DNA of 60,702 nucleotides, filler included, from Nemertoderma westbladi (Eukaryota > Animalia > Xenacoelomorpha), in assembly GCA_032718475.1 (NCBI GenBank). It is 3 parts of 3 records of this genome, joined end to end, with 100 filler letters (N's around TTAATTAATTAA, not from the genome) between each part and the next. Parts side by side here need not be neighbours in the genome. Positions count along the whole stretch, not along the records: positions 23,978 to 45,765 come from JAUCBJ010005168.1; 2 more parts are not named here. The stretch is one strand, 5' to 3'. The translations under genes were made by a program, and so were the position numbers. Shown here piece by piece: positions 4,993-44,745 of this stretch. The notes below the pieces were generated by a model. The model ran no database searches. It was not told where the DNA came from and was given only the letters and a program-made list of their open reading frames with translations. Position 1 is the stretch's first letter; the number at the start of each line of letters is the position of its first letter.

Positions 4993-5067
4993 GGTGGCGC
5001 TTCCATGGACTTTACAAATCTCCTTGTCATCTTCGGAGTATTTTCCGCTATCTAGTTCGGGATCGAA

Positions 5068-7029: not shown

Positions 7030-7038
7030 TGGCGGGCA

Positions 7039-9960: not shown

Positions 9961-10148
9961 TCTAGCGCCTCGTTGATTGCTAGATATGCGATATCGTAAA
10001 ATAGTTCTTCGTAGGTCTCGTATTCAGCTTGGACTACCCGAATGGTAATCCTGAATCGTCCAACGTTTGTTCCTTGTACTTCGACTTCAACGTGCCAGAT
10101 TCCTGGCTCAACTTGAATTATATCAATAGGTGTGATCAATACTTCCAT
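9957..10148 (-). CDS. 63-aa upstream ORF whose stop overlaps the gag start (ATGA)
   Basis: TGA at 9959-9957 overlaps gag ATG at 9960-9958; protein-like composition; no family recognised. Confidence 0.4.
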   Translation of the reverse strand: MEVLITPIDIIQVEPGIWHVEVEVQGTNVGRFRITIRVVQAEYETYEELFYDIAYLAINEALE

Positions 10149-14606: not shown

Positions 14607-16650
14607 CTACAGTAGTGCACCCACGAATTGGTGATACCTGTGGCGGACTAAGGCTCTGACCCGGCGTAGCATTCTTGTGAATGTGCCATCCAGAGATTTG
14701 GTGTCCTCGGCAGTTAGAGCCCAGCATGGACTCCCATAGAGGAGTACTGGAACTACTGCTGCTCTAAATAATCGGACCTTAAGTTTCCGATTAATTGTTG
14801 GTGACTTCCAAATCCTGGAAAGCCTATTCAAGGCTGCCCATGCCTTTGCCTTACGTATTCGAAGGTTCTCACCTGACTTCCGGATCCATGATCCCAGGTA
14901 ACAGAAGTCGTCCACATGCTCAAGCATACCATCCTTTGAGCTTATGCTCATCCGATCAGAGACTTGCTGAGAACCTTCAAAGTTAACTGTCAAAATTTTG
15001 GTCTTTTTAGAGATAATAAAAAGACCAACACTAGAAGCAGCATGTTCTAATGAGCTGAGGAGCCATGGGCTCCCTCTAGTGATTCTGAGAGTACTCCTAA
15101 GTCATCAGCAAAGTCTAGATCAGTTAGGTACTTGGCAGGATTTCCTCGACTTCTGGAGCCAGTAGATGGAGTTATCATCACCCCATCATCATTATGATGA
15201 TCTAAGGACATGCGTAGAACATAGTCAACCACAATTATGAACAGTGCAACAGAAAATGGTGCAAGTGTGTCTCCCTGGAGGACGCCCCATAACACTTCAA
15301 ATGGTTCTGTGTCACCATCAACAGTATACACAAATGTTGTCAAACCATCGTATACTGATCTGATTGCTGCAATAATTTCATCAGGAATCCCATATAATGA
15401 AAGTATGCTGAACATACGTGAGCGGGAGACTGTATCAAAGGCCTTGAAGAAGTCAACAAAGATAACAGGCAGATGCCTGTCATTCTTTTTTGATAACTCT
15501 TCAATTATCCTTCTAAGTGCCAAAATGGGTTCCATGGTCCCACGACCTTTACCGAACCCATTCTGATTTTTATGGAGCAGTCTCTCAATGGGATCCCTGA
15601 TGCGATTTAATAGAATTCTATTGTATAGCTTTGCAGCAATCGAGATCAATGAGATTCCCCGAAAAGAACCATAGAGTGTTAGATTGCCATTCTTGGGAAC
15701 TGGCACCAACTTATTTGTTTTCATTTCTTGTGGGACTCTTGTTGTTCGGTACATGTCTACTATGATGGGATAGATGAGCTTTAAACACTCAGGTATTTTA
15801 AAGACCTCAGGGGGAACACCATCTACTCCACTGGCACGATTAGTCTTAATGCTCTTTGCAGCAGCCTTCACTTCTGCAAAGGAGATATCGCCAATGGGAA
15901 TATCTGGGAGTACAGCCTCAGACACTTTTACTTCTATAAAGTTATCAGGCAATACCCTGTCATTATTGAGGAGCTTTTCAAAGTGGGCCTTCCAACCATT
16001 GAGGCGATCGGCTGGTGATTCAGCCTTAACCTTGGTGGTTGGTTGGCTTTTCCGCCCAGTAAGCAAGTTGATCGATTTCCATGCCTGGAATGATTGCCCG
16101 CTGTCGTCGGCATCATTGATGGCATCAACCTGTTGGTTTATTAGCTCCTGTAGATTAACAGAGTACTGCCTGTTCAGGGACCTAGATGCAGCCTTAACTG
16201 CATTCTTGGCCGCTGTAGTCTGTTTGAGTCGGGACTGTTTCTGCGCCTAATATAGGTCATTTCGGCACTTCTGGATTTTGTTGTCAGTCCAGGGGGCCCT
16301 TTTCCTGTTTTGAGGGTATACAGGAACTGTTTCTGCAGCTGCTAACTTAACTGCTTCTGTGAAGGCAGTATAGCCCTCACAGTGATCTGCCGCCTCAGAG
16401 GCAAGAACCTCATACCTGTTGCTCAGATGTAGTGTGAAGCTGGATCTCACACTTGGCTGTTGCAACAGAGAGGACCAGTCATGCCGCGGCATGGCAGATT
16501 TCGTTGTTCTGCTAGCACGCAGACTAAGTCTTACCTTGGCCACAATAAGGCGGTGATCACTGGAGAAGGGTCGAAGTGTAAATGCATTACAGTCTTGTAT
16601 AGAGCTCCTGTACTTCCTACGAAACAGAATATAGTCTATCGCTGACTATC
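14607..16650 (-). mobile_element. RTE-clade LINE fragment (RT, degenerate, truncated)
   Basis: FRGISLISIAAKLYNRILLNRI, FVDFFKAFDTV, GVLQGDTLAPF, DLDFADD, FCYLGS, KVRLFRAAVVPVLLYG; upstream SDH endonuclease end. Confidence 0.92.
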
Positions 16651-20491: not shown

Positions 20492-23400
20492 TGTTAACGG
20501 ATCCAGGTCGTCCCGTCCGCTATCACTTCGTCCCATCCAAATTACCACTCAATATATGAGTGCCAATATGACTCCCATTAAAGAGCCACTCCAATAATAG
20601 TAACACGTGGTACCAAAAAACCAATTTAGCGATACCCATACTGGCTGTTAACCCACAGGGTGTACTGTAGGGATCGCATTATTATTATAATAAGGTGCTA
20701 ACATTATTGCCTTGCCAATTACTCATCCTTAGAGGTTCCAACAGTGGAGAGCCAATGACAAGCCACAAACCAAAAACCAGCTGACACATATCTGATATAA
20801 TCCTATGTGGCTACTGTACCAACCTCAGATGCACACCTCAGCATATCAAGGTGCAGTACACATTTACGCCTGATAGTGTTGTATCGGTAGGTAGCCAGCA
20901 GACATTCAATACGGACCGAACTCAAATATTTATTACCAGTCAGTCATTAAGCTCCCGTTAACCTCCAAGGACGAGTAACCAGCACCACTACAGTTGCGTT
21001 GTGCAGTTACTAACGGCCATTATTACAATTAATCACCTACAAACTATTATCTGCTCCTTTTCTTATAACTCTGGTTACCTCCGCATACCTCAAAGCAGCA
21101 AAGCACCAACCTCAAGTGTGTCTCGGAGGCCCGTTTCGGACTGCACCCCGATCCGGGCACAATACAACACTACAGCTATGCGCGCATGTCTACAACAACC
21201 AGCAACGCGCGAATAAAACTTAATACTGTAATAAACTCGAGAAATCGCTGACGACTCAAGTTCGCTCAATACGATAAACTCGAGAAGGAGGAAAGTAACT
21301 AAATTCTTCGACGAATAAAATGAGCGCTACGAGAAGTGTGACAACGTCTCTGTCAAGCGCTGCGGGGGGCTCCACGACGCTAACCGCGAACGTAACGGGT
21401 AGGGAGGACGCCCAACGACGGAAGACCGACGACGGACGCCCGCGCTTTCCTACAGCGGTGAGCGACCATTCCATTACGGGGTCCGATGGACGACGGGGAT
21501 CAGGACCCGTCGTTCCGGACAAAACTCCAACCGCCGATCCGAATATCGGTGGTTCCAACCACGAGGAAGCGGGGAGCGAAGCGGACCAAACTCTCCGCGC
21601 TCCTCCGGAGAGATACGCCATATCGAATCCTACGACAACCCAAACGAACTCAATCACTACTCAACATCGAACCGGCGCTAAGACAACCGCAGACCTCGCC
21701 GTCCCAACGACGCTGACGGCTGGCAGGTCTATGTTGCGACAGGCAACGGCGGATGCCGGTGCTGGCGTTGGACAACTCGCCATTGCGGACCCACCGCGAA
21801 CTCTGGAAGGAGATCCGGACTGCCGCTGGACGAGATTAACAACCTCGATGCCTCTACCACCCACCACAACGCCGAGGACCCGCGCTACGACCCAAGATGA
21901 CGATCTAGTCTCCATCGACTCCAGCATTGTGGAACGACTGGGAAGACTCTTCCGGCGAGCCAAAGGGATTTTGGAGGACTGTCGACGAATTGGTAAGATT
22001 GTTCCTAACTCTGTTAATACACTCAGAGACATTAATTTATTTATAGAACACTTAATTAATTGCCAGCAGTATGCTGTTGCGGACGCAAAATCCGCAGAAA
22101 TTTTAGATATAATATTAGATTTACATAATCGTGAACTCATTTCCGGTTTGGTGAAAGTGGGAAAGCACTCTGTAGGGTCATCGCTACAGGGAGAGCAAAA
22201 TTGGATAGGGGGCGATGTGGAAGCCGGGGGTATAGAGTCTTCGATAAACCCTGAGGATTCTGTATCCGTGGCCTCCACACCCACAGGGGTGACAAAATCA
22301 TCCCGCCATTCAGTCTCGTCGTCTAGAAAAGCGAGACAGGCGGCAAAAATTAACGGTCAGTGCCTTCTAGAACAAATGGCTATAGAAGAACAAAATTTAA
22401 AAATGCGTATAGAGGATGAGCAAGCAGAACGCGAGAGAAAACGCACAGAACGTGAGAAAGAACGTGCACAACGCATTGAGAACGAGCGCGAGGAACGCGA
22501 GGTTAGAGAGAGACATGGGGCCATGCATGATAGGCTAGCCCAATTAGCCGTACAGCAGGTTGACACCAAACGTAGGATTGAATTAATGCAACTAGGTGCG
22601 CTAGACTTACTGAATGAGAGTATGGTTTCCAGAACGAGTAATTCAGTAAAAAGTGGGGTGTCGAGTAACTATCGAAAATGTGGGCCAAAATCCACATTAA
22701 TAGACTCACGGCCCATACAAGGACCGAGTACCGTGGGTGACAAACAAAAAATAACTACCTACCGGTACATAAAACTGAAGACAATGCCAACAAATAATAA
22801 TATTAATTCACAAGTAATAAATTCAAATATTACAAGTAAACGCACAATGCTAAGTCAAGATAAAGTTTATCCTAGAAGTAGGTCGCCAGTGTTGCTTTCT
22901 GCGGAAGATCGTCGCTCAGGCGCGTTCGACAACAGGTCCGATATAACAGGACGAGAAGATCAACTAGGGAATGGGGGTGGCGACGAGCACCGAGTTCATC
23001 GAGAACCAGGCGATCGATATTCTTATCGGGTTGAGCCTCGTGGCCAACCGTCGTCGTTCGGTGGGGAGTTTCACACTTCGAGATGTGATTATCCCGTCAG
23101 AATACACCAGGTAGAGAGTAACCCAAGTAGAAAAGTAGGCAACTGCCAGACTGCAGATAGCATAGGCCGCTCAGCCGTAGTACACACCATGTACGATCAA
23201 CATCTTAGTAGGCAGTTTGAAAATTCACAGACCGATGACCATGTGCGGACCTCGGTGTTAAACCCATCCGCGCCGGGATTCGAGCCGACGTTGGGACTGG
23301 TAGGCCATACTCCCACGCCGGATTCTGTAGGCTTAGATTCTATACCGCGTCCGGTGACTGTAGGCCCGGGGCCGGTGCAGGTACCGGTACCGGTATGCAC

Positions 23401-23877
23401 AAGCAATACTGCTGCTACTGATGTGTGTGTACAGCAGCAACCATGGCAACCACGTCTCAGCCCAGCTGGAACGTGGGTGTACAACCAATCTGGGGCTGCT
23501 GTAGTACACAACATACAGCACACAAGTAACCAACGGCACATTACATCTGATAACAACAATGATACAGCTATAATGACAGGTCCACTACCTGCAATGCAAT
23601 ACCCAACACACCAAGCAGGGCAACGCGGGCATACAGCGCCAGCACCAATTTTAAATAACCCCAGTACAACGGAGGGGCCAATTAAGCAGCTATCCTCACT
23701 CATAGAAGCACTGAGGGTCAAATTGGATTTGCCTGTAGTGGAGCCGTTCGTGTTCGATGGAACACGTCCAGAAGAATACATTCAGTTTCGGCAAATGTAT
23801 TGTGACGAAATCCTGTCAAAGGATTTACCAAAGTATTCCTGCCTGAAGTACTTGCAATCCTATACAGATGGGGAAGC
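20492..23877 (+). mobile_element. BEL/Pao element E3, 5' part, cut by the assembly linker
   Basis: Begins TGTTAACGG at an AT-to-mixed composition shift; long gag follows. Confidence 0.7.
21320..23877 (+). CDS. E3 gag N-terminal region (intact >850 aa up to the gap)
   Basis: LPVVEPFVFDGTRPEEYIQF...LKYLQSYTDG closely matches E2 LPPVEPFKFDGSKPEEYLQF...LKYLQVYTGG; INPEDSVS motif and coiled-coil. Confidence 0.85.
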
Positions 23878-23977: not shown

Positions 23978-24782
23978 ACTATTATCAACTGTCTCTAGAA
24001 TAAGATTGGAAATTTCATCACGACCCCTTAAATCGATTACCTGTACTTCAGGTATGTTGTTTGATTCATTAGATATTGGGGCAATCATTTCAATTTCATT
24101 AAATAGCGGCTCAAGATTCTCTTTCCCATCGTCTAAATCAAACAGGTCGAGTATTTTATTTTTACAACGTTTACGCGGTGGTGAACTATCACTATCTGTA
24201 TCACCATTAGAGGGCTGCAGGGACTTTGCTAAATCGTCATCGGTACAAAGATAAAGGACTATGTGCTTATACTGCTTGCCAATATTGTTCTTGAACAATT
24301 TCAAAACAAAGGGGGTTGGTTGATGTTCCTGGAATAATTTTCGATATTTCGCCATTGTCTAAGCACAGGCAATAAATCTTCCTTGAGTTAAAACAGTTTG
24401 GATTATAGACTTTCCACTTTTCTAATGCTTTACTAAGTATCTCTTCATATCCATCCGATTCCGACACCCGCAAAGGTAGTCGTTTACCTCGTTTCGATTT
24501 TAACTGTTCTGACATATCACACCACTCAAATAAACCAATTGTGATAACTACATCGGAAGAAGGCTTTGGCTTAGAAACAGTTTGTTTCCATTGCTTACCC
24601 TTTGCAGTCACATAATCATTTAATGACAGCACATGGGCTGGTCTTGGCATAACGTTTTCACCACTAATACTCGAAGGATTATTAATAGCTGTACTCGGGG
24701 AATCATAGTTCACGGGTGAACCACAGTATTTACAAAACATGTCTCCATCAACAAGATACTTTCCGCATTTCGTACAAAACAT
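23978..24782 (-). pseudogene. Zn-ribbon plus putative ubiquitin-like domain protein, frameshifted near 24310; resembles N-termini of G2E3/HECT-like repetitive proteins
   Basis: MFCTKCG...FCKYCG; ITIGL...LKSKRGKRLPLRV...EILSKALEK...IPGT, then in another frame FVLKLFKNNIGKQYKHIVLYLC; recalled similarity only. Confidence 0.45.
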
Positions 24783-25407
24783 TTTCCTTCATTTACAAGG
24801 AAAGCAAGAATACAAGGAAGAACAGCTTAACCTGTTAACACTAACAGTCCTATATCTAGGCCTAGGTACCATACCTAATCATTACCGAATTATGTCTAAC
24901 CTAACTGTATTAACCAAACAGACTTAATACCTACTACTGTACTATAGTTACAGTAGGCTACTCCAGCACTCTGCTGCTCTGGTACGTACTAGAGCGCAGT
25001 CCACTCCGTTACTACCTATTTTCTAATCCCTAATCAATCTATCAATACAGGTTCCGGCATCCAACAGTTCAAGTAAGATGATAGGGCTGTAGGGGCCTAA
25101 TCCAGTAATCTCTGAATCTAGTTCATAGTTAGCTCTATCATCTGTCTGTCTGTAGCTACATATAGTCATGGTACACTGGTACATGTACATGTCAAGGTAC
25201 ATGTAGCTCCTTGGATACTGGGATATTACCGAACCGGTACCGGTGAGTACATCAGTACTCTACTGCAGTATGTAATACAGTACCGGTATCGCAGCATCTA
25301 CAGGGTTACAGCTTAATTAATGTAACTCAATGTAACTCCACAACATGCAACTCTCTGACTTTTACAGCTTTCTGACTTCAACTTTCTGACTAATACTTTT
25401 TTATATT

Positions 25408-26790
25408 TTAATTTCTGCACTGGCTTCTTTGTATTTTGCCCTGCTCTTTGTTTTCTGCCTTGGCTTCTTTGTATTTTGCCCTGCTCTTTGTTTTCTGACC
25501 TGGCTTCTTTGTATTATTGTAGTGCAGAATAATGTCTGGTTTGTATTTTATCGCAACATCAACCTTAGTGTCGTGGTGCATTGAACTAATGAGCACAACA
25601 GCACGAGCTTTCTTGGGAACATAGCTAACCATGGTGAGGTTTCTATCGAATCCAAATGTAGATGATAATACCTCACGACTCCTATTTGGCAACATTGCCT
25701 TGGGGACATCCCTCCTGTTCTTTCTGATCGTCCCAACTAATGTGGTATCCACAGCAAGTAGATCTTCCGCCAATTTGCAATCCGTAAAGAAATTGTCACA
25801 TGTGACATTTTGCCCAGAACGTGTCCATGGTCTCGTTAGAGATTTCACCACGCTCACTCCAAGGCCTTGCGCTCTCTCTGCCCCAGGCTGTCGCCCCAGG
25901 TATATTTCACCGTTCAATGGGTATGAAGAACTGGCATCGCAATTCCAGAATATCTTCACCCCATACTTGCCTGGTTTGGAAGGAATATACTGGATGAAGG
26001 GGCAGCGACCACGAAATGAAACGAGTTGTTCATCGACTGTCATATCAAAGCCTGGTTGGTACATCAGTGGGAGCCTGGCTAAGAACATCTCCCAGACATC
26101 CCTGAAGGCAGCGAGCTTATCAGTTTCTTTACGTTCTGGGCGGGTGTTGATATTGTCGAACCGAGTGAATCGTAGAATGTCCTTGAACCACATCAATGAC
26201 ATGGTGGACCGAAATACTGGGCGGGATGACGGGCTCCAGAGTTCCTCAACAGATTCGTGGGCGGATTTGTATACCCCGGCCAAAAGCAGCAAACCGATAA
26301 AAGCCCGAATATCGGCCGAGTCAACACGCCCCCATACTTTTGGATCCCGTGCTGGATTAGCCGTATTCCAATCCAAAAGGACTTTCTGTGCGCGGCGATT
26401 TGTTTCACGGACAACAACCAAGATGATATCATCTGTTATGAAGAGATCATAACTCTCTGCGATTCCCTGTACTCGTCCCTGGCGACTAACTCCACTTGAT
26501 TGCTTTACCACATTACTTGAACTAGCCCGGACTGTAGCTGGCTGATTTGGCTCCGCATTCCACTCTCGACCACTCTTTGAAACGTATGTAATGCGACGCC
26601 GTTGTGTGGGTGGTTGGGGAATCGAAATTCCTAATTCATCGTCAACTGCAGCATCAGTTTCGCAATCTGAACTGTTGTCAGTGTCGGAACCAACAGCAAT
26701 GTCTGTTTCACACCCATAGTCGCTTTCATCAGGGCTATCTTCATCGGAAAGCAGATCATATCCATCAATCTCAGAGTCGGAGGAAGCCAT
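25408..26790 (-). CDS. piggyBac (PGBD4-like) transposase, C-terminally truncated
   Basis: Acidic N-terminus; MTVDEQLVSFRGRCPFIQYIPSKPGKYGVK; VTCDNFFT; homology ends at LHYNNTK, before the GGVD motif. Confidence 0.92.
   Translation of the reverse strand: MASSDSEIDGYDLLSDEDSPDESDYGCETDIAVGSDTDNSSDCETDAAVDDELGISIPQPPTQRRRITYVSKSGREWNAEPNQPATVRASSSNVVKQSSGVSRQGRVQGIAESYDLFITDDIILVVVRETNRRAQKVLLDWNTANPARDPKVWGRVDSADIRAFIGLLLLAGVYKSAHESVEELWSPSSRPVFRSTMSLMWFKDILRFTRFDNINTRPERKETDKLAAFRDVWEMFLARLPLMYQPGFDMTVDEQLVSFRGRCPFIQYIPSKPGKYGVKIFWNCDASSSYPLNGEIYLGRQPGAERAQGLGVSVVKSLTRPWTRSGQNVTCDNFFTDCKLAEDLLAVDTTLVGTIRKNRRDVPKAMLPNRSREVLSSTFGFDRNLTMVSYVPKKARAVVLISSMHHDTKVDVAIKYKPDIILHYNNTKKPGQKTKSRAKYKEAKAENKEQGKIQRSQCRN
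25421..25514. repeat. 40-bp tandem duplication (x2.3) at the transposase truncation point
   Basis: TGGCTTCTTTGTATT recurs at 25421, 25461 and 25501. Confidence 0.9.
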
Positions 26791-27848
26791 ACCGGTAGTA
26801 AGAATAATAGTAAGAACAGAACAGTATTGTAGGTACCTACTACTGGCTACTCAATATACTGAAGTAGCTAGGGCATAGGGCCTAACTGCACAATTATTGT
26901 ATTTCCGGTACTGGTATGGGTAGGCGATTAGTAATATGAGTACCGGTATGGTTTATTACTATAGATAGGCCTAATTTAGCAGTACTCAACTGCGTTTTGA
27001 TTGGGGTAAATATTTACCCCAGGTTAACTTTTGGGACAACTTTTGAAAACGTTGATTTTAACCATGGACCCCCCGCAGTTTCCAAAATTATTTTTGTGCT
27101 GTCGTGTAGGCCAGTAAAAGTTAGGAAAGTACCTAGGAGCTCAGGTTGTCAAATATTTCCATTCCAAGATAAAAACGCAATTAAACAGTGCTGGGGTAAT
27201 TTTTTACCCCAAGTATACTGACGAAGGTTAATGGAGAACGCATTGCCAGCACACATACCCCTGTATGAGAGCATACCGCAACTGTTATTAACAACATTTA
27301 TAAGTAGTTTTTAATTTTTAAGCATCCTGTTTGTTAAACAAACTACCCCGGCCTAACCAATAAAGACACAAACTGCTCTATTTACTAGACGGGGCAATCA
27401 GGAGCGTATAATTGCTAATGTAGGGCTGCTAAATACAAAACCGCTACTCACCGTTAGATGGCGCTAACCTGCCGTCCGCTAATATATTTCCTAATTTTCT
27501 ACGGCTCCTGCTAATTTCTTGTTCCTTTCTCTACCGATTACTCGATAGAGAGCTAACTGTTCGAATATATGAGCCACGCGGGAATAACCAATACAATACA
27601 AAATAATAATTCTAACTTAAATATACAAAATAATCCTAATTCTAAATTAAATATACAAAATAATAACCCTAACTTAAACGCACAAAATAATCCAAATAAA
27701 ATAATTTAAATTCAAACGAACAAAATAATCCTAATTTTAATTTAAATATACAAAATAATTTAAATAATGATCCGAATTCCGAACAAAATAATTTAAATAA
27801 TTCAAATAATTTAGACGGTAATATTTTTGATCTAACGGTGCTATTAAT

Positions 27849-30800
27849 ATGAACGCAGCAAACGTAGGTGGTCCGACCAGCGGGAGCCTGCAAGGCCACG
27901 TAGTTAGTACGCAGGGAGTAGCGGGGGTGAGTCACCCCGACGGGAGCCTGCAAGGCCACATAGTTGGGCAGGGAGGAGCGGGGGTGAGTCAACCTGACGG
28001 GAGCCTGCAAGGCCACGCAGTAGTAGAGGGTGAGGCGGGGGTGAATAGACCCAGCCGCAGTAGAGATAGTGCGTCGACTAGAGAGGGGCGTAGAAGCGAA
28101 GTAGGAGATAGTGAAGTAATAGGTGGCGAGTGGGGGGGGGGGGGGGGGGCTACAGGCACCCCACCACGGGAGATTAGTGGCGGGAGGGGGGGGGGGGCAG
28201 AGAATGTCCCACGAGCGTCGGCGGATAATGCGCAGGGCGAGTCAGGTGAACCGCAGCACCCGGCGACGGAGAATAGCAGGGGGATTACAAATATCCCCAG
28301 CAGCGTCCAACCGGCTAGAGGGAGAGAGGTTGGCGTCATGAGCGGTCGAGCGACAAGACGTCGAGCCCACTCGGAAGACGGAAGAAGAACAGTGGAGTTT
28401 AACCGGGAGGTCGAAGAGAGATCTCGTGAGCGGGAACGCTACACTGAAGAGAGAAGAAGTGAAGAGAATAGAAGAAGCATTGCTACGAGCGACGGGAGAG
28501 CGAGGACAGATAGCGAGCCGTCGGTAGTAGAGATGGAGTTGGAGAGTCAGTGGTGTTGAACTCCGGGAGATTGCCGTCGCTCCGGAGAGACACAGCCTGG
28601 CGAGATATACTATACGCCGGGAGAGGGGTACAGGATGTACCGATACGAGGACGAGAACAGGAGAGGGGATCGAAGAGAAACTTCCCGACGGGATATACCT
28701 GCCGATCGAGAGTACGGTAGTCGCGGGGAGGACTTCTTGGAATATTCGAGAAGATTAAACTTCGGTCCGGAAGGACACAGGCAGACTGCAGGACATACTG
28801 TAGGCCTTACTGCACATACTATAGGCCATGCTGGGAGAGATAGTGTAGGCGATAGGGTAGCGTGAACAACGGGATTAGATCCGGAAGTCGCGGCCTACAT
28901 ACCGGTAGGCAGGCAAGAAGTAGATAGGCCTATACCAGTACCAGCACAGCAGTATGACTATAATATGCAGGGACATAACATATATCCAGGGGAGGGGAGA
29001 GTTATTGCAGATAGGTGTATGGGCCCCATTATATTAACATAAACCCCAGTACCAAACATAACACAGGTGGGGGGGAGGACAGGGTGACATTCTCCCATTA
29101 CAATATCAACAATACACTCAACCGGGAATGAGAACATCGAACCCCCTGGACCAGAATAGGTCATGCGACATGGAGATATGGAGGGGGCCGTTGCCCCCAA
29201 TGATATATCTGACACAGAAAAGATCGACAGGCCCGACGGGTGGACCGCACACAACAGGAGAATCTGTACAGCATCCCTCGAACCCATTGGAAGCACAGGC
29301 GATGGGAATGGCAACACTTATCGATGCGCTCAAGACCAGGATCGAGCTACCACCAGTTGAGCCATTTAAATTCGACGGAAGCAAACCGGAAGAATACCTG
29401 CAATTCCAACGCATATACAGCAACGAAATATTAACTAAGAACCTGACGCAGGCGGAGTGCCTAAAATATTTACAGGTATACACAGGAGGCCCAGCGTACG
29501 ACATTGTGAGGCAGTATCAGGGCATCGAGGGTGGCTTCACGACTGCATGGCGGGCCCTAGACAGGGAATACGGACACCCAGCCAAGATCATCTGGCTGAC
29601 CCTTAGGGGAATAACATCGGGTGGCCTATAAGATAACCCTGTTAGTATAAAGACCTTCGCGAATAAGGTCGAGAAGGCGTTAATCGTGCTGAAGATGCTA
29701 GACGCGCCATACGAACTCAACGCATCTAATAACATCACCATGATAGCGCAGGCACTGCCAATCTGGCTACGCAACAAATGGAGGAAGATCGCCTTCTCCA
29801 CCCGGGAGAAGGTGCGGAACCGGGCCTAGAGGTAATGTCGAACTTCCTCAATTACGAAGCGGAGTTGATCACGGACCCAGTCTATAGCGAGGATAGTCTG
29901 GGGAGGGCGCCAAAGACCGAATATAACAGGCCGAAACCGGAACATAATGTGGCAAATGCATTACCAAAGCTTAGACAATCGCTGCCATACACGGCGACGC
30001 AAGGGACTGCTAGTCCACATATAGCCGGGGGTAGGGCCACACCATGGCATGGACAGGGGCATAATAACAACACAAATAAATATAACCCCAACACGCCCAG
30101 TAGGCCAAACCCAAACGATAAGCACAGTAGGGAACTAGGCATGAACGTGAGTGCGATACGTAGCGCACTGTATAGGGACGGCTATAATCCAGGAAACAAA
30201 TGCCAATTACATTGGAATGCACTTCATCAGACCATGAACTGCAGGTACTGGAAAGCGTTGCCCAAACAAGATCAGATAGAATACGCAAGGAAGAGTGGAA
30301 TCTGTCATCGATGTGTGGCGGGTGGACACAAGGCTGAGCAATGCAAAGAAACATCAATTAAGTTTGGTCAAGGCAAAGGGCAGACGATGGCGACAAGCAC
30401 TGTAGGAGCAAAGAGAAGGGGAACGGTACTACTCGGGGTAGTGCCAGTGAGGGTAATGGGTGAAGGCGGTCGATCAGTTACTACGTTGATGCTGATCGAC
30501 AGCGGAGCAGCCTTCACATTGGTGAAGAATTGGGTGGCCGAGGAGATAGGGTTACAGACAAGGCCAAGCAGGATGGTGGTAACTACCATCTCCAGCAAGG
30601 ATGAGGTCCTGGAGATGAGAACAGGAAGGTGCGAGATATCAGTGATAGCACCGGGATGTGACTATGGGGCGACCATCGACCCCATCCAGGTATTAGAATC
30701 GATCAATATAAATGCCAGGCGACCAACTAACATCGAGGTCGAGCAATACAGATTCCTGGACAATATCGATTTCTTGATACTGGAGGTGGATGTCAGGAAG

Positions 30801-31280
30801 GTATCCATCATAGTGGGAATGGACTGCCCGACGGCCCACGAGAGAGTACAGACGATCTTCAGGGAGGACAGACAGCGTGATCCGATGGCAATTCTCACAC
30901 CATTCGGATGGACGCTAAGCGGCCCAATCAAAACCAAAATTCCATTTAGGATGTCGGAGACATCATGGTGCATGTTCGCAGGAACCATGAGGGAGATGGA
31001 AGATGAAGGAGTGGAGGAACAGCTGAAGAGACTGTTAAGACAGGACTTTGAAGGACTGAAGGAGACTGGGGTCGGAACCTCGGTAGAGGATAAACAGGCA
31101 GTACAGAGTGTGAAGGAGTCAATGAGGTGCGACGAGGGACGGTACACCATAGGCATGGTGTGGAAACAACCGAAGTTACTGTTGCCTGACAACAAGAGGA
31201 TGGTACTCACGAGGCTTCGCAAACTGAAGCAAACGCTCAAGCGGAGCCCCGAGAAGGATGAGTCATTCATAGGACGATAA
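27849..31280 (+). pseudogene. E2 gag plus protease (fragments)
   Basis: LPPVEPFKFDGSKPEEY; CQLHWNALHQTMNC; CHRCVAGGHKAEQC; LIDSGAAFT; three GSLQGH tandem repeats (57-60 bp) at 27880-28030. Confidence 0.9.
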
Positions 31281-33130
31281 AGAAGTACCTCGAAAAAGGA
31301 TGGGCCATGGAGTTGCCGGTCGACGAACCAAACACGGACAGGACCTACTAGCTGCCACTCCATGTGGCTTTAGACCAAAAGAAGGGTAAACTGCGGATGG
31401 TGGTTGACGCATCGGCTAAAACCAATGGCAAGAGCATAAACGACTATCTGCTGGAGGGCCCCAATATCTACAACTCGGGGATAGAGGTCTTGTTGACATT
31501 TAGGAATGGGAGGCACGCCTTCACGTGCGACATCGAAGGCATGTTCAACCAAGTCCGTGTGACGGAGGAGGACAGTGACAGCCAGCGCTTCCTATGGTAC
31601 AATGGCGACGAGGAACCGTCGGCGATACCGATGTACAAAATGGTGGTGCAGAACATGGGGGCCAAGTCGTCCTCATTCACGACGACTATGGCTATTAGAG
31701 ATACGGTAGAGGGGAAAGAGGGAAAGTACAGTGCCAGAGCGATCGACATGATTCGACGCGGCTTCTATGTAGACGACAGGATGGAATCTGGAAATACGGC
31801 TAAATAATTACTGGAGACAGGGCGAGAGGTTCGCGACATCCTGAAAGGATCCGGATTTAACCTGACTAAGTTCCAGTCCAGCTCTAAGGAGTTCATGAAC
31901 GCCATAGAGGACAGGCGGCCAGAGTCAACCATGGACAACCCCACAACAGCCAAGGTACAGGACATGGCAAACAAGAGAATGGAGTCTCAGCAGAAGGCGC
32001 TGGGGATCGTGTGGAACCGGGAGACGGACGAGTTCAAGTACCAACTGAGCCAGGAGGGAGCGGAGATCCACACAAAGAGAGGCTATGTATCATACATAGC
32101 AATGATATACGATCCATTAGGCCTAGCATCCCCATTGTTAGTCACGGGGAAACAGATACTAAAGAAAGTATATAAGTTAAAGGACGAGTGGGATACGGAG
32201 GTCCCAGAAGAAATTAGCAAGCAATGGAGTAAGTGGATGGGGAGTTTAGAACAGATGGGGACGTGTATTTCGGGACGCGTGTATTTCCGGACGGGGAAAT
32301 GACAGATCTGGACCTACACATGTTCTCCGATGCATCATTGGAAGCATACGGAGCGGCACTCTACCTGGTACAGCAAAAGGGGGCTCATAAGCCCAGACTT
32401 GCATTCAGTAAAGCAAAGTCGACGCCACCAGATTCAGTGTCAGTCCCGAAACTCGAGTTGACAGCTGCGAGATTAGGAGTAAGGGCCACAGCCTACTTGA
32501 TGGACACTATACCCAACATAGTGGAGACACACTACTGGACGGACTCCATGGTGGTGCTCAGGTGGCTGCACAACGAGAAGACGAGATACCCTATATTCGT
32601 CGTGAATAGGGTAGATTAAATAAGGGTGACAACAGACTTGGAAAGGTGGCACTACTGCCCTACAGACGAGAACCCAGCAGACTTGTTATCGAGGGGCGTG
32701 GCACGCCACATTTTCTCAAAGAAGGAGGTGTTGTGGCAGCACGGGCCACACTTCCTGAATGATAGATTGGCCTGGCCACCAATGAAGAAGGTGGACCCGG
32801 GCTCAGAGGAAGTAGCACTGGAAGGAGAAGATTCAGAAGGAGAAGAGATATATAGTCAAATGGTGAGGGAGGTCAAGGAGGTGCAACCAAAATCAGAAGA
32901 GCCATGCGACAACCCGACGGATAGGTTACTCAACTACAGCTCCAGCTGGTATAAGACCAAGAAGTTGGTAGCGTACTGGAGGGCCTACGGGGATTTCCTC
33001 AAGGGAGTTGGCAAGGACGCCAAGAGGAAACCAAACATTGACCTGGAGGGAGCGGCCAAGGCCGTGACACGGTACGAACAGAGAAGGAACTACGCCGACG
33101 AAGTGGATCGAGTTAGCAAGCAACAACATC
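31281..33130 (+). pseudogene. E2 RT and RNase H (fragments)
   Basis: KLRMVVDASA, AFTCDIEGMFNQV, FYVDD, YDPLGLASP, LHMFSDAS, SVPKLELTAA, WHYCPTDENPADLLSRG. Confidence 0.95.
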
Positions 33131-34376
33131 TTCATCAGGACAGCGAGCACATCGCGCTGTCCCCACAACTAAACGAAGATGGGATTCTGGTGATGAACTC
33201 CAGAGTGCTGAATAACAACAGCCTAATCATCCCACCAAAACCCATTATCATTCCCAACAGATCGCCGATAGTCCACCAGATCATTTGGGACTCCCACGAG
33301 TCGATATTACACGGAGGCACCAACCAGACTCTCACAGAGATACGGAGGACCTTCTGGATCACGCAGCTAAGGAAGAAGGTGAAGGCGGTAGTGCCAGACC
33401 TGCCGACGGACGAGAAAGGAGAGGGCCGTACAGGAGATGGCGCCATTACTGGCCAGTAGGGTGAGACAGCACGGCCCGCCATTCACGCACTACGGCGTAG
33501 ACAAGTTCGGGCCGATTAAGATCAAGGTGATGCGACAGACAGAGAAACGCTACGGCATCATCTTTGTATGTAACAACACGAGGGCGGTAGGAATAGAACT
33601 TGCCCAGGACGCTACGGCATCGGCATTCATTAATGCCTTAGAGAGATTTAGAGACCGCAAAGCTGGAACGATCGCAGTGATCTATTCCGACAATGGGACC
33701 AACTTTGTGGGAGCAGAGAACGAGTTGGCAGAGGCCTTTGACATCCAAGAGGGAGACAATGTCAGGGCAGCCATGAGGAGGCGACAGGTGAAATGGGAAA
33801 GGAGGACGCCGTATGCGCCACAGGCTTGTGGGTAGTTCCAAGCATCTGATGACAAAGTTGATGAATTCCCACATGGTTACAGAGGACATACTAAGAACGG
33901 TGCTAGCTAAGTGTGAGGGAATCATTAATAGCAGACCGTTATACCCGGAGAATGACGACCTGGAATCACTAGACGTGCTGACACCGAGCCACTTTCTGAT
34001 GGAAAGGCCGGCGACCATCGACATGCGGGGTGTAGACCCAGGTGACATACACTCCCGACAGAGTTGGAAAGTCGCCAAGGCGATAAGCGCCGAGTACTGG
34101 AGGAGGTGGGTCGAGGAATACCTACCCACATTACATAGGAGGAGCAAGTGGAGAAACATCACTAGAGAGTTAAAGAAAGGTGACTTGGTGATCGTCACTG
34201 ACGACACAATCATCAATAACCAGTGGAGACTAGCGAGAGTAGTAGACACTTACCCCGACGAGGACGGAAGAGTCCGATCAGTAGAAGTGCGGATAGGGGG
34301 TAAGATAGGAGCAAAGGACAGGAAGAGGTACAGGAGGGCTGTAGGGAAGTGCTGCCTATTAGAAGGGGCACCATAG
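33131..34376 (+). pseudogene. E2 integrase
   Basis: SHESILHGG, GVDKFGP, YSDNGTNFVGA, INSRPL, LTPSHFL, WRRWVEEYLPTL, DGRVRSVEV. Confidence 0.95.
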
Positions 34377-34582
34377 TTTAGTCGTCCAAGTGTTGGACTG
34401 AGGGGGTGGGATTGAGGGCGAGACACCCTTCCCATACAAAATATAAAAAAAAATAAAAAATAATAAAATAAAGTAGTAGAAATAAATAGAAAGTTAGAAA
34501 GAGAAAGTAATAGTAGATAGTACGTAGTAGTAAGTAAGTAGGCAGATAGAAGTATAGGGAGTGTGGTATATAAACATACCAC

Positions 34583-34965
34583 GAGAGTAAGAGGGTATAT
34601 AGTACCGTTAGTAGAGTTAGAGAGTAAGAGGGTACATAGTACTGTTAGTAGAGTTAGAGAGTAAGAGGGTATATAGTACCATTAGTAGAGTTAGAGAGTA
34701 AGAGGATACATAGTACCGTTAGTAGATTTAAAGTTAGAGAGTTAGTAGAGTTAGAGTATAAGAGGGTACATAGTACCGTTAGTAGAGTTAGAGAGTAAGA
34801 TGGTACATAGAACTGTTAGTAGAGTTAGAGAGTAGGAGGGTACATAGTACCGTTAGTAGAGTTAGAGTTAGAGAGTTAGTAGAGTTAGAGAGTTAGAGAG
34901 TTGGAGAATTAGTAGAGTTAGTATAGTTAGTAGAGTCAGCAGAACTAGTAGAGTTAGTAGTAAGA
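34583..34965 (+). repeat. ~37-bp purine-rich tandem repeat (AGTAGAGTTAGAGAGTAAGAGGGTACATAGTACCGTT) in the E2 pol-ORF3 spacer
   Basis: About 7 copies plus short AGAGTT sub-repeats. Confidence 0.9.
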
Positions 34966-35557
34966 GAGTGGAGAGTATGATATGTAAATATATCATAGGA
35001 ATAGTGGTGATAGGGTACGTAGTACCGTAGGGGCCATGGGCATGGAAAGCGCCATGAAAGTGAGAGAGGGGCACGTGGGTACAGTAGGATAGACCGTGTA
35101 GTCCGCACGAGACAGACTACTGTACTGAACAGCCCGTAGAGTAGGTTAGAATGTTTGATACAGGGCTAGGAGGCTACCTGGTGCAGACTAGCACAGTAGA
35201 GAATAGCTAGTCTACTCTGTATGTAAACTATAGGGGTTATCTAGGCAGAAATAACCCACTATGAGTATTAATAGCACATTAATAGGATTAAAATTAATAT
35301 TAAAATAAAAATTCTAACAAATTATGGTAACAGTAGGAGGGAAATTCTAGAACATAATAAAAGTAACTGAGAAATTTGGGGAATTTAGGAAAATTAGCAC
35401 TTTGGGGGGTACATAGGTCAAAATATAGTACAAAACTTAGTGTTCTGAGAGAGATAGGCCATTACCGATCCATACAGACCACCTTAATAACGTCACTCAT
35501 TTATTTTGAGCCTTGGCAAGGCACCACCAAGTGGGTGAGCGATCGGGGGTGTTCGTA

Positions 35558-37787
35558 ATGACGGAGAGACTTGTCAGGAAGAGAAAGGTGGAAAGAAGTG
35601 GGAAGGAGATACTAGTAGACTTCACCCAAAGGCATCCGGAGGAGAAGACGAGGGGATACTATGAGCCGTTAGCGAAGGGTCACAAGGCGCTGCAGGACCA
35701 TTTCAGGGAGATGCACGAGAGGCGACTGGTCGGGACCTACAGAACACCGTCGCTAGACAACGCAATCCTTGAGCATTTCCACTACGTAGTAAAGGGAGAC
35801 GAGGCGAAGTTCGGGATACCGAAGTACCTGAGGGAACCACCGAGAAAGGACTGGAGGAGGTTCGTAGAGTCTGTAAAAAGTGGAGGATACATGGTCCTAG
35901 ACGACGAAGGGACTGTGGAAGACGACGAGGGTTCGAGAAGAGGGTCGGAGGGGTTGGCCAGAACCATACTACTGCATTTGGCTGCGCCGAATGGAGACAT
36001 ATTCCTGTTCAATCTAGGAACATATGGGAAGAAGAGCGGGCCGAAATTAAACCGGTTGCCAAGGGCGGTGCAGAACCTAGTAAGGGAGAAGTCGACGATG
36101 AAGGTGGATCGGCGATCCGCGACGATGCGGAGAGGATCGTCAGACTGGAGACCCCCAACCTCCTGGACATGCAAGCGGTCTACATGGCCATGACAGGGCC
36201 AGACAGGTTGGGATTGGTAGAGAAGACAGGACATTGCGGAGCAGTGGCGATGGGCAAACTCATGGGGCTCGTCTGCCACAAGCCAATGGACTGGGGTAAA
36301 TTCAGGGAGGAGTACGGAGTGGAGCTGGCGAACTCGCTGAAGTGGGGAGCGAGGCCAGGGAAACAGGAGGTATATCAGTTCCGGAGAGGAGCGATAAAGA
36401 TATATCAGAAGCGATATATCCTACAGGAGGATTGGATAATGATAGGTTTACTAAACCTATTCATGGCCGTGGTTATCGGAAGAGAGCCAACGGCGTTTCT
36501 GCTGTCAGGATCACCCCTGAACTACAGAAGAGCCTTCAAGGTGGCCTTCGAAGGTCTGGCAGACCACCTGGGGCTGAAGGGCGAGTCGGTATACTACAAC
36601 TGCCGGCACCTAGTAGACAGGGAGGTGGATACACCATATCAGAGGTGGGAGAAGCTGGAGGCGGATAGACTAGAGGAGAAGCGACTGGAAGAAGTCACCA
36701 GATGAGAAAGGAGGGAGGCAGACGAAAGAGAGGCGGAAGCTAGAGGAGAGGACTACGTGTTCGAGGCCCAGAACTTGGACGAGTTACGGTGGGGATCAGG
36801 GAGCTCGGGCGAGTTTCTGGGGGAGGAGTTAGGATGGACGGAAGAATCGCCGAAACAGTCAATATCAGGATTGCAAGCGATGCCCATGCCAGCGGGCTCT
36901 GATGGCGATTTCGCGAGGAAGAGACCGAGAGAACTGGAAGGATGGAAAGTTACGGGAAGAGCCAAGGTGGGAAGGGACACAGTGGGTCTGCCGGGATACC
37001 TGGTTTGGATCCACTTCCAGCGGGGGATGAGGATGACGATGAGTTCGGGGAGATGCCGCCCATCGAGAGGATCGGCCACTCAGACACTGACTGGGTTGGC
37101 GGGAGAGTGGTGACGGCCAGCGGGGCGAGGGCCTTCTGGGATAAACCCGGCAAGCGGACCTGGATGCACGAGGAGCCAGAAATGGATTTCGCGGGGAGCA
37201 CCATCAGGTTGGGCGAGCAACCAGGAACGGCACCACGAGTAGTGTTTGGAGAGACGATGCCGAGGCAAGACGAGGATGTAGACATGGACAGAGATGTTAA
37301 CGTCCAGAAGTTTGCTTACCAACGGCTCCATAGACCTAGGAGACCGCTTGGGGCAAAAGGCGACTTGGGGCGGGATGTGTTGATACACGGCTGCGATTAC
37401 TGCGGGAGGCTTACTCACCAGGAAAAGAGCTGTTTGTATCGATTCCAGAAGGGGACGAGTTGCCTCTACTGCCGTGAGTCGAGTCATAGGATGGGGGCGT
37501 GTCCGAGTTTGCACAACCGGTGTTCTAAGTGTAACTTCCGAGGGCACTATGGGCGCCAGTGCGACTGGATGGACGATGAGGAGAAGTTCAAGATCTTCGA
37601 GGAGTGGGCCGACGTCGGCGTCATAACACCAGCGCCCAAAGAATCAACCACGGGAATTAGTATGGCGGTAACGGCGAGAATGAGGAGTCTCAAAGAAGAC
37701 AAACCAGAGGGAAGGAAGTGGCCCAGACAGGACGACGATAGAGGGAAGGAACTGAGATGGTTCCCGAAGACGGGAGGAGAGAATTAA
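35558..37787 (+). pseudogene. E2 extra ORF3 (~740 aa reconstructed): DEDDy-like exonuclease + three Cys/His knuckles
   Basis: ExoI-like YMVLDDEG; LLHLAAPNGDIFLF; LPRAVQNLV..KV[fs]GSAIRDDA; LLDMQ; QKRYILQE; CDYCGRLTHQEKSC, CLYCRESSHRMGAC, CSKCNFRGHYGRQC; frameshifts at ~36107 and ~36960, in-frame TGA at 36703. Confidence 0.8.
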
Positions 37788-38467
37788 GACTCGGAGGGGG
37801 AGATGTGGGGATGCCTGGAAGGCACCACATATGAGGTAATACGAACTCCTAAGTGCAAATTTAATAAAGTGCAATTAGTATATACGTATGTAATAATCAA
37901 TAGAATATAATTAGAATCAATATAATCAAAGTAACTACTATAGTCATGTAACCTTTTCCAACTAGCTACTGGGACTGGGGACCAACTGACTATACTAGGA
38001 GCACGGGACAGTAGACGAATCACATTTTCTGAGTGCGACGGCACAAAAGGGGAGGGTGAGGCTTGTCAGGAGTGAGTGGAGTGGAATAAATGTGGGTTGA
38101 GTATAGGAACATGGGGGAGGAACGGAGAGGTGTTGACGTGCGCAGAATGTAGACGGGTGCAATTCAAATGTGGGGAGCGAGCAGAGTGGAGTTAGAGTGA
38201 GTTCAGAGTGGAGTTAGAGTGAGTTCAGAGCGAAGTTAGAGTGAGTTTGGAGAGAGGTGATATAAAATTGTGTGAGAGGAGTCCACAATTGTCTCGAACA
38301 GAGACGTCAGATGTCTTGGTGCAACATAGGTTGCGATTGCACCAAGAAGGGGTAGCAATATCATACCCAGAGGGAGCGGCCTGGAAAGCCGACTCCGAGA
38401 AAAGAACTCCACCACACACCCGATACTAGATCGGGTTCCAGCGGAATTGAAGCGCACTTGAGGTTGA

Positions 38468-38502
38468 TGCTATCTTCTCACCGGGAAGATAGCAAGGGGG
38501 AG
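38468..38502 (+). promoter_or_regulatory. E2 polypurine tract (AAGGGGGAG) preceded by a hairpin
   Basis: TGCTATCTTC-7nt-GAAGATAGCA, then AAGGGGGAG|TGTAAG. Confidence 0.7.
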
Positions 38503-38900
38503 TGTAAGCGGATTCAATTCCACCTCATTACCCACCAGTAAATGGGATAGTGGCATTTTCAGCAATATGTTGGAAATACGAGATTAGCAATATTAATCTC
38601 GTATCACAACCAACATTGGGGGGGGGGGGGGGGGCAACACAAGCCCCGAAGCCATACACAAAGGAAGGTTAGAGGTCAAACCACCTCGGAGGGGACACAG
38701 CTAGTAGAGGCTAGCTGCAGAGGGGAAACACTCCCAGAGAGTGAAAGGGTGACAAGTAGAATATTAGCCAATAAGGGGGGAGGAAAGCACTGGTAGGGCA
38801 CAGAAGAGCATCCATTAGGTAACAGGCCAAAGTAGCGTAGGAGTTGAAGCAATATTGGTATATCAATCATATATTACCTTCCGTTGCCGGTTTGTGATTC
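38503..38900 (+). repeat. Start of the E2 3' LTR (end uncertain)
   Basis: TGTAAG immediately after the PPT. Confidence 0.55.
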
Positions 38901-39249: not shown

Positions 39250-40420
39250 GAGTGCCCCTGGCACTCTTACATTGGTGTGCCCCTGGCACTCTTACATTGG
39301 TGTGCCCCTGGCACTCTTACATTGCATTGGTGTGCCCCTCTAATTACTCTAATTTCTTTGTTCGCTAATGTTGGCTAATTTCTGGATCGCATTGGGGAGT
39401 TTATTCCATAGATATGGGCCAAGGTAGGAGAACGACTGTGTGGCTGCTACAGTGTGTTTCTGGTGTACTAAGCGTGCAGCGTGAGCGTGTGCAGCTCCGT
39501 TATGTAGGGGGTGAGAAGGTTCAGTAAAAATAACCATGTCGCGCATATAAGCCGGGGCTGTCTTTGCATGGATATTAAACATGTGGGTTAGTATTATCTG
39601 GTGGGTACGTTCAGTAATTGGAAGCCAGTTAAAATCTACAAAATGGGCAGCACAATATGCGCTTGAGAGTCAAGTCATGGGCAGAACCTGATGCACTTGC
39701 GTTGGAGTGCATCGACTTGATTACGTAGACGACTCGCAGCACTCGGATACCAGCAAGGGGCTGAAAAGTCTATAAGCGGCTGTATCAGCGAGTTACAAAG
39801 CAACCGACGCAGGGGTTTATCAAGGACTTGCGAATTCCGATAAAGGAATTTGAGACATGCGTTTCCCCTGCGTATAATATTATGTGTGGACTCCGATCCG
39901 GATAAGGTTGGATCCATCACGTATCCCAAGTACTTTATGGTATCTGTTGGTTCGAGTAGTTTGTTTTTGTAGTAGACTTCAAGGCTTCCGGCTGATGCAA
40001 TGCATTGGTGCGTTCCTAAAAGGAAGACCTCGAATTTCCTGGGGTGTATACTGAGGCGATTATCAACTGCCCAATCAGCTACGCGCGACAGAGTTTCAAT
40101 AAGGCATGCAGAAATTTCTTCGCAGTTGTCTCCGGCTTTGATGAGGTTGGTATCATCAGCATACTTCAGTGCAGTGGCGGATTCGTGGCAGGCAGTTTTG
40201 GCTGGGCTGGCATTATTGACGTCGTTAGTCTGGGATGCTGTTTTCGACAAGGATTTGACAGGAGGCAAGGCAAGGTCTAAATCGTTCATATAGATCAGGA
40301 ATTAGAGGACAGCGAGTAGGGCTCCTTGAGGAGTACCGCAGTCAATTCCAAGAGTTCTAGAACGAGAGTTTCCTACCTGGACAAACTGGGATCTGCCAGA
40401 TAGGTATGATCGGGAACCTT
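39250..40420 (-). mobile_element. CR1/L2-like LINE RT fragment, 5' truncated, with a 25-bp tandem repeat (x3.5) at 39251-39340
   Basis: SYLSGRSQFV, GTPQG, FLIYMNDL, KYADDT, IKYLG, SFSYLGPYLWNKLP. Confidence 0.88.
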
Positions 40421-42523: not shown

Positions 42524-44745
42524 AGTTCAGACTGACAGAGAGACCGACAGACAGACAGACTAGATTTATGTAAACGTGTAAACTGACATCATAAATGAAA
42601 TCAGCAACCCTTAAAACCCCCATAGCGAGAATGTTAGTTAATTTGAATTATCTTTTATGTTTTGACAGACTGACTGACAGAATGACCGACAGACAGACAG
42701 ACTAGATTTATGTAAACGTGTAAACTGACATCAGAAATGAAATCAGCAACCCTTAAAACCCCCATAGCGAGAATGTTAGTTAATTTGAATTATCTTTTAT
42801 GTTTTGACAGACTGACTGACAGAATGACCGACAGACAGACAGACTAGATTTTTTTAAACGTGAAAACTGACATCTGAAATAAAATTAGCACCCATTAAAA
42901 CCCCCATAACGAGAATGTTAGATAGTTTGTATTCTTTTTTAAGTTTTGACAGACTGGCTGACTGACAGAAAGACCGACAAACAGACAGTCTAGATTTATG
43001 TAAACCTGAAAACTGACATCAGAAATGAAATCAGCACCCCTTAAAACCCCCATAGCGAGAATGTTAGTTAATTTGAATCCTCTTTTATGTTTTGACAGAC
43101 TGACTGACAGAATGACCGACAGACAGACAGACTAGATTTATGTAAACGTGTAAACTGACATCATAAATGAAATCAGCAACCCTTAAAACCCCCATAGCGA
43201 GAATGTTAGTTAATTTGAATTATCTTTTATGTTTTGACAGACTGACTGACAGAATGACCGACAGACAGACAGACTAGATTTATGTAAACGTGTAAACTGA
43301 CATCATAAATGAAATCAGCAACCCTTAAAACCCCCATAGCGAGAATGTTAGTTAATTTGAATTATCTTTTATGTTTTGACAGACTGACTGACAGAATGAC
43401 CGACAGACAGACAGACTAGATTTATGTAAACGTGTAAACTGACATCATAAATGAAATCAGCAACCCTTAAAACCCCCATAGCGAGAATGTTAGCTAATTT
43501 GAATTATCTTTTATGTTTTGACAGACTGACTGACAGAATGACCGACAGACAGACAGACTAGATTTATGTAAACGTGTAAACTGACATCAGAAATGAAATC
43601 AGCAACCCTTAAAACCCCCATAGCGAGAATGTTAGTTAATTTGAATTATCTTTTATGTTTTGACAGACTGACTGACAGAATGACCGACAGACAGACAGAC
43701 TAGATTTTTTTAAACGTGAAAACTGACATCTGAAATAAAATTAGCACCCATTAAAACCCCCATAACGAGAATGTTAGATAGTTTGTATTCTTTTTTAAGT
43801 TTTGACAGACTGACTGACTGACAGAAAGACCGACAAACAGACAGTCTAGATTTATGTAAACCTGAAAACTGACATCAGAAATGAAATCAGCACCCCTTAA
43901 AACCCCCATAGCGAGAATGTTAGTTAATTTGAATTATCTTTTATGTTTTGACAGACTGACTGACAGAATGACCGACAGACAGACAGACTAGATTTATGTA
44001 AACGTGTAAACTGACATCATAAATGAAATCAGCAACCCTTAAAACCCCCATAGCGAGAATGTTAGTTAATTTGAATTATCTTTTATGTTTTGACAGACTG
44101 ACTGACAGAATGACCGACAGACAGACAGACTAGATTTATGTAAACGTGTAAACTGACATCATAAATGAAATCAGCAACCCTTAAAACCCCCATAGCGAGA
44201 ATGTTAGTTAATTTGAATTATCTTTTATGTTTTGACAGACTGACTGACAGAATGACCGACAGACAGACAGACTAGATTTATGTAAACGTGTAAACTGACA
44301 TCATAAATGAAATCAGCAACCCTTAAAACCCCCATAGCGAGAATGTTAGCTAATTTGAATTATCTTTTATGTTTTGACAGACTGACTGACAGAATGACCG
44401 ACAGACAGACAGACTAGATTTATGTAAACGTGTAAACTGACATCAGAAATGAAATCAGCAACCCTTAAAACCCCCATAGCGAGAATGTTAGTTAATTTGA
44501 ATTATCTTTTATGTTTTGACAGACTGACTGACAGAATGACCGACATACAGACAGTCTAGATTTATGTAAACCTGAAAACTGACATCAGAAATGAAATCAG
44601 CACCCCTTAAAACCCCCATAGCGAGAATGTTAGTTAATTTGAATTCTCTTTTATGTTTTGAGTCCAGACTGACTAGATTTATGTAAACGTGAAAACTGAC
44701 ATCAGAAATGTAATCAGCACTCCCATAGTGAGAATGTTAGCGACA
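42524..44745. repeat. 142-bp satellite, ~15.5 copies, with embedded GACA microsatellite and a 6-unit higher-order pattern
   Basis: TAGATTT recurs at 42561, 42703, 42845, 42991, 43133...; variant unit recurs after 856 bp. Confidence 0.95.

Follow-up and report, generated by a model that had tools for sequence, protein, structure and literature searches.

We found that a BEL/Pao retrotransposon of the xenacoelomorph Nemertoderma westbladi (assembly GCA_032718475.1) carries a third gene, ORF3, in sense orientation between pol and the polypurine tract (PPT). The variation among copies of this element family indicates that ORF3 is a real accessory gene of BEL/Pao under purifying selection. It ends in three zinc knuckles, and remote sequence homology makes it probable that its N-terminal region is a domain of the DEDDy family (PF01612, WRN/EXD2-like). 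We tentatively favour the reading in which ORF3 is a WRN/EXD2-like DEDDy 3′–5′ exonuclease which, together with its knuckles, would act on the element's own RNA or on replication by-products. The stretch of DNA that was analysed as a whole (the window, 60,702 nucleotides) holds one copy of this element, E2, and one copy of a second, divergent BEL/Pao element, E1, both of which are dead.

E2 was assigned to BEL/Pao by Pfam matches to DUF1759, Asp_protease_2, Peptidase_A17, Integrase_H2C2, rve and DUF5641, which give the order gag, protease, Pao-type RNase H, integrase and DUF5641 on the plus strand. Its parts are as follows:

27849–34376, plus strand: gag-pol, from Pfam matches and ORF pieces, with many stops and frame changes
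34377–35557, plus strand: non-coding spacer holding tandem repeats (37-nt units and related ones) as well as TATA-like and AATAAA motifs
34396–34411, plus strand: purine tract right behind pol, resembling (by sequence, in side-by-side view) the tract that precedes the 3′ LTR
35558–36106, plus strand: ORF3 piece 1, with basic residues at the N-terminus (RKRK), about 100 unassigned aa, the putative ExoI D-x-E (35900, 35906), strands 2–3 and the run-in to ExoII
36109–36702, plus strand: ORF3 piece 2, with the putative ExoII Asp (36124), a DxQ motif, W-x-x-x-P, the candidate ExoIII Tyr (36415) and Glu (36427), and a charged tail
36703–37391, plus strand: in-frame stop (36703–36705), then an acidic, proline-rich linker with the second frame change
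37392–37562, plus strand: three CX2CX4HX4C zinc knuckles
37793–37803, plus strand: polypurine tract, six bases past the ORF3 stop, followed by TG (from the sequence)
37804–38616, plus strand: presumed 3′ LTR, which starts with TG; its end is uncertain and it has no partner LTR in the window

ORF3 runs from an ATG at 35558 to a TAA at 37785–37787 (approximately 743 codons) and is now in four pieces (35558–36106, 36109–36702, 36706 to about 36995, and about 36995 to 37784), the second frame change, at about 36995, being positioned by eye only. A preceding examination of the DNA alone (the sequence-only reading) had described a sense ORF of about 740 aa broken by two frameshifts and one stop, lying behind a repeat-rich spacer and before the PPT, and we recovered precisely this arrangement, with all of the quoted E2 and E1 motifs in their places. 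The spacer between the pol stop (34376) and ORF3 measures 1.18 kb. As the pol frame is closed by a stop 1.2 kb upstream, ORF3 would need a message of its own; TATA-like motifs and a weak resemblance to the LTR are present in the spacer. This resemblance, between 34873–35000 in the spacer and 38175–38280 in the presumed 3′ LTR, ends in a TATA-like run and was equalled by 1 of 200 block shuffles, in low-complexity sequence. Two similar purine tracts (34396–34414 and 37788–37805), each followed by TG, flank the spacer and ORF3. One possibility is that the spacer derives from an old LTR and serves ORF3 as its promoter; another is that some forms of the element lack ORF3.

E2 has a PPT and a TG start at its 3′ end; no matching 5′ LTR was found in the window. 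A DDE_Tnp_1_7 transposase gene (25408–26850, minus strand), which we take to be of the piggyBac type, and a zinc-ribbon ORF (24267–24788, minus strand) lie just upstream of E2 and may be the reason that the 5′ LTR is missing. There is also an assembly gap upstream. Elsewhere in the window, an open frame of 859 aa (21299–23877, plus strand) resembles the beginning of a further BEL Gag, the third in the window, and its end is similar by eye to the DUF1759 region of E2; it is cut by an assembly gap and has no Pfam match. Pieces of RVT_1 reverse transcriptase at 14607–16645 and 39675–40301 (both minus strand) probably belong to non-LTR elements. A satellite with over 100 copies of its 49-nt unit occupies 52400–57900, and an array of 142-nt tandem repeats lies at 42530–44740.

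The second element, E1, was identified as BEL/Pao by Pfam matches to DUF1759, Peptidase_A17 and rve, and has an ORF3 of its own in the same place:

3383–10023 (approximate ends), minus strand: gag-pol of E1, from Pfam
1218–1949, minus strand: exonuclease-like piece of E1 ORF3, with the ExoII block intact and no in-frame ExoI D-x-E; the gene probably starts near 2154
162–340, minus strand: knuckles of E1 ORF3, two canonical (263–222 and 203–162) and a degenerate first one

The two elements are indeed very divergent, with 32% identity in pol (982-column alignment). Both fall among BEL integrase relatives and they group together in pol trees (0.96 FastTree, 99 SH-aLRT), as two long, compositionally odd branches, so that a single ancient capture of ORF3 is allowed and no more than that. 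The E1 ORF had been called clearly homologous to that of E2. This holds for the knuckle regions (47% identity over 34 aa, E 1e−9); for the exonuclease region alone the pairwise match was not significant, with 177 of 2000 shuffles scoring as high, even though the best local alignment falls in the register originally noticed. The linkers could not be aligned. The pattern C-x2-C-x4-H-x4-C is satisfied three times in E2, in agreement with the three Cys/His knuckles that had been described, and twice in E1, and these five are among the seven occurrences of the motif in all six frames of the whole window. The Pfam family zf-CCHC_4 matched the E2 knuckles weakly (E 0.011, below the cut-off). Since both copies are broken between the nuclease and the knuckles, a single fused protein is something that we can only infer. 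Ahead of the candidate ExoIII, both ORF3s have a K-W-x3-P-x4-Y-x2-R-R-x-G/A-I motif (36340–36430, plus strand; 1310–1225, minus strand), an insertion which has no counterpart in the bacterial family alignment.

Other copies of the E2 family were surveyed in the contigs of publicly available DNA runs, all from a single organism. These contigs cover all 30 bins of E2, ORF3 included, and the nuclease stretch of 601 bases was represented by 916 and 1,467 contigs, so the gene is present in many copies of the family. Selection was tested over 35860–36460, a stretch within the nuclease half of ORF3; the codon counts rest on the 40 variable places listed out of 48. Among places varying between copies, 22 of 28 were at third codon positions (P = 1.2e−6), and the bias held in the frame predicted for either side of the first break (10 of 13 and 12 of 15). 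Such a bias among copies points to purifying selection, as the sequence-only reading had supposed for this accessory gene. Where E2 alone differs from nearly all other copies, only 3 of 12 places were at third positions (Fisher P = 0.003 against 22 of 28), as expected from neutral decay after insertion. Thresholds of 0.8 and 0.9 gave the same codon-position picture, and none of the six candidate catalytic codons was among the 40 listed places. At the first ORF3 break, 11 and 13 contigs from other copies have a sequence unlike that of E2, so this break is not family-wide. Among the contigs listed for other copies, none joins pol to ORF3. In a wider integrase scan we found 79 BEL-like metagenome loci, 22 with at least 1.5 kb beyond pol and seven with at least 3 kb; in none of the 79 did sequence beyond pol match the nuclease or the knuckles, the 22 being those with at least 1.5 kb to inspect.

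The motif pattern of ORF3 had been read by eye as that of the DEDDy family. Standard libraries returned nothing: Pfam, NCBIfam and PDB sequence searches with the ORF3 nuclease gave no match even at E 10, and the curated cut-off of PF01612 was not reached, the separate pieces having no match at E 10 and the E2 domain being split by a break. Word-seeded searches of 5.8 billion proteins found no ORF3 homologue, nor did one turn up when metagenomic and viral sequences were scanned with ORF3 piece 2 or the integrase, and tblastn against phages gave nothing better than E 4. The sole HMMER match in 1.84 billion proteins, a repetitive protein of 350 aa matched over 33 residues, was rejected as chance. 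A fold comparison with AlphaFold and Foldseek, which had been suggested as a check, was made with E1; the models (pLDDT 36 and 44, the second alignment having one row partly misaligned) were too poor for a fold test, and fold searches with them, in which the lowest Foldseek E was 0.24, the highest Z was 3.5 and the matches listed included no DEDD protein, count neither for nor against the domain.

As the standard searches and AlphaFold were uninformative, we built our own PF01612 profile from 65 bacterial proteins of the family, one locus having been left out for a stop. E2 was entered with an X at its break and E1 was entered twice among 298 targets, which included the frames of the window. 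E2 ranked first (P = 6.7e−5, reached by 0 of 3000 shuffles) and E1 second (P = 2.2e−3, reached by 7 of 3000). The E2 value alone is not significant across Pfam, since 6.7e−5 multiplied by 24,736 families gives about 1.7. With a narrower profile of 27 sequences E2 was still first (2 of 3000 shuffles reached its score) and E1 dropped to rank 3. HHalign of the E1/E2 pair against the PF01612 family gave 92.8% over 132 columns (score 46.4), and placed both the D-x-E of ExoI and the Asp of ExoII in register; single copies gave 53% for E2 and 4.9% for E1. None of 150 column shuffles reached the score of the pair (best 19.6), and the highest score among 22 decoys was 24.2 in comparison with the pair and 33.1 in comparison with the family, the 47 decoy-source proteins coming from a motif scan that is biased towards ExoI and having no reference exonuclease among them. 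Neither the profile nor the HHalign test was blind, as PF01612 had first been picked by eye. E1 was also used in an ESM Atlas search, which was blind to the family. Of its 30 matches, 25 belong to a set headed by ‘Werner syndrome-like exonuclease’ (score 0.92), in which 38% of members carry PF01612; the recognition value of 2258 was below the tool's mark of 2300 and the top three matches were unnamed clusters. Taken together, the profile ranks, the HHalign match and the Atlas result support the DEDDy pattern through remote homology, and the blank Pfam and PDB searches keep this identification at the level of probable.

On the same comparisons ORF3 appears likely to have an active site. The ExoI D-x-E of E2 (35900/35906) aligns without gaps to the D-T-E of the family at the end of strand 1, and the ExoII Asp is in register in both E2 (36124) and E1, where the ExoII block ranked first of 45,264 windows. 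The E2 candidates for ExoI (rank 42 of 59,998 windows) and ExoIII (rank 13 of 53,033) are each the best-scoring window inside ORF3. The ExoIII candidate reads Y-x3-E followed by D-W-I, where the family has Y-x3-D-x-W-I; it needs an insertion of about 10 residues and HHalign stops short of it. The fourth catalytic place would then be a Glu at the best-fitting position after the insertion, where EXD2 has Asp. We would expect a two-metal site to be formed by D115, E117, D190, Y287 and E291 (E2 numbering), for comparison with D108, E110, D171, Y242 and D246 in EXD2 (PMC6648332). E1 is decayed, with frame changes near the catalytic places; no in-frame ExoI D-x-E was seen in its open piece and there is no Tyr at its ExoIII place. 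The order and approximate spacing of the ExoI D-x-E, the ExoII D and the ExoIII Y-x3-acid are those of the WRN/EXD2/Mut-7 subgroup of PF01612, and the nearest named Atlas cluster was the Werner syndrome-like one. ORF3 differs from this subgroup in having inserted residues at three places (behind ExoI, behind strand 3 and ahead of ExoIII), in the Glu at the fourth site, in lying below every library threshold and in being joined to knuckles, whereas the subgroup is joined to helicase, HRDC or HNH parts.

CCHC knuckles bind single-stranded nucleic acid. The product of ORF3 would be a soluble 3′–5′ exonuclease with nucleocapsid-like knuckles, translated from a separate message, and the knuckles may tether the nuclease to single-stranded RNA of the element's own cycle, where its task would be to trim, from the 3′ end, transcripts of the element, primers or the by-products of reverse transcription. 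A role in 3′-end processing was also the first suggestion made for comparable rotifer genes (PMC5408684).

That ORF3 is a neutral passenger, such as a captured host fragment or an unrelated insertion, or an env gene, is very improbable. It could be argued from the purine tract right behind pol, which might mark the end of the element, and from the lack of a contig bridging pol and ORF3 among those listed for other copies. A passenger is largely refuted by the codon-position test, and it would not account for a second family in which ORF3 has an equivalent at the corresponding position, or for an ORF3 that abuts the PPT. An env glycoprotein was rejected as a candidate, because the E2 pieces have no signal-like start and no clear membrane anchor; the N-terminus is basic, and the most hydrophobic 19-residue window of E2 in a hydropathy scan averages 1.59 and lies on the ExoIII helix. 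We also regard it as improbable, though less so, that ORF3 is real and selected while its N-terminal domain is not DEDDy, the likeness coming from common alpha/beta motifs, or that nuclease and knuckles are two genes. The blank standard libraries, the low HHalign values of the single copies and the break between the modules in both copies would fit such a reading; E1 and E2 nevertheless match the same profile positions independently, the pair lies far above either copy alone, the order and spacing of the motifs are right, and the blind Atlas search points to the same family.

If the domain is DEDD, it may be catalytically dead or weakened and serve with the knuckles as an RNA-binding scaffold like EXD1 or Maelstrom, which we consider doubtful. 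Both copies have an unusual ExoIII, an in-frame ExoI was not seen in E1, and inactive DEDD derivatives do function in piRNA biogenesis (PMC5408684). Against this, E2 retains acidic residues at all three motifs (the D-x-E, the Asp of ExoII and the acid of ExoIII), the listed variable places include none of them, and E1 is a decayed copy in which the frame changes near these residues. Somewhat more plausible, yet still not likely, is a counter-defence factor that trims or destroys piRNA or siRNA guides or their element-derived source RNA, or competes with the trimmers Nibbler and Mut-7. ORF3 is separate from Gag-Pol, its nuclease region diverges much faster (to the point of no significant pairwise match) than pol, the family is highly multi-copy, and the basic N-terminal cluster could be a nuclear signal. 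In its favour, too, Nibbler trims piRNA 3′ ends (PMC13269885). On the other side, the fast divergence equally fits relaxed constraint. The mature piRNAs of animals are protected by a methyl group at the 3′ end, which also speaks against this reading. The most specific form of this idea, an old BEL/Pao lineage in which an active WRN/Nibbler-like exoribonuclease from a separate message is aimed by its knuckles to destroy or shorten small-RNA guides, and is thus an enzymatic suppressor of piRNA/siRNA silencing, seems to us unlikely. A role on the element's own RNA is the reading we would place ahead of counter-silencing and of the dead scaffold, although no result separates the first two.

Juno and Vesta are elements of the gypsy type. 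A DEDDy ORF3 has been described in these bdelloid rotifer LTR retrotransposons and in Athena/Terminon elements, with its activity untested (Rodriguez et al. 2017, PMC5408684). We compared the rotifer ORF3s with that of E2 by published description. Both are in sense orientation downstream of pol in the env position, as is that of E1, have an RNase D-like DEDDy domain visible to remote-homology methods only and no membrane segments, and have one catalytic Asp replaced by Glu (DEED in the rotifers). The precedent named in the sequence-only reading for rotifer LTR elements is therefore real (PMC5408684), whereas the one named for nematodes was not found in the literature searched. The host differs, being BEL/Pao here, while the accessible text of the rotifer paper does not contain BEL or Pao as whole words. 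E2 has three C-terminal CCHC knuckles in about 740 aa, where the rotifer paper reports a Cys-His-Cys motif in two ORFs only; and the E2 family shows purifying selection, where the rotifer ORF3s showed no significant departure from neutrality (PMC5408684).

Reviews mention a DEDDy ORF3 in rotifers only, as far as their accessible text goes (PMC5718144, PMC6431247), and the domain is listed as a known accessory in PMC6338049. Env-bearing BEL/Pao elements (Belpaoviridae) resemble E2 in having a third gene between pol and the PPT, but that of E2 is not a membrane glycoprotein. Env is the only third gene named in the ICTV profile of the Belpaoviridae (PMC8742986) and the only one in the accessible text of a BEL/Pao survey, in which ‘exonuclease’ occurs 0 times (PMC3118150). 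In the literature searched we found no DEDDy third gene in BEL/Pao, nor a WRN-like subtype, knuckles or a selection signal for such third genes; subscription journals, Repbase Reports and supplements lay outside this scope and could hold one. What is new in ORF3 is the host superfamily, the knuckles and the evidence of selection, and probably also a different DEDDy subtype; a DEDDy third gene in itself was already known from rotifers.

With ORF3, third genes encoding nucleases would be known from a further superfamily of LTR retrotransposons besides the rotifer elements, and the env slot would have been filled by DEDD nucleases more than once. The purifying selection seen among copies is evidence which the rotifer study was without. 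The knuckles suggest an RNA substrate, which leads to the testable idea that animal LTR elements may carry enzymes for processing their own RNA or for acting against small-RNA silencing.
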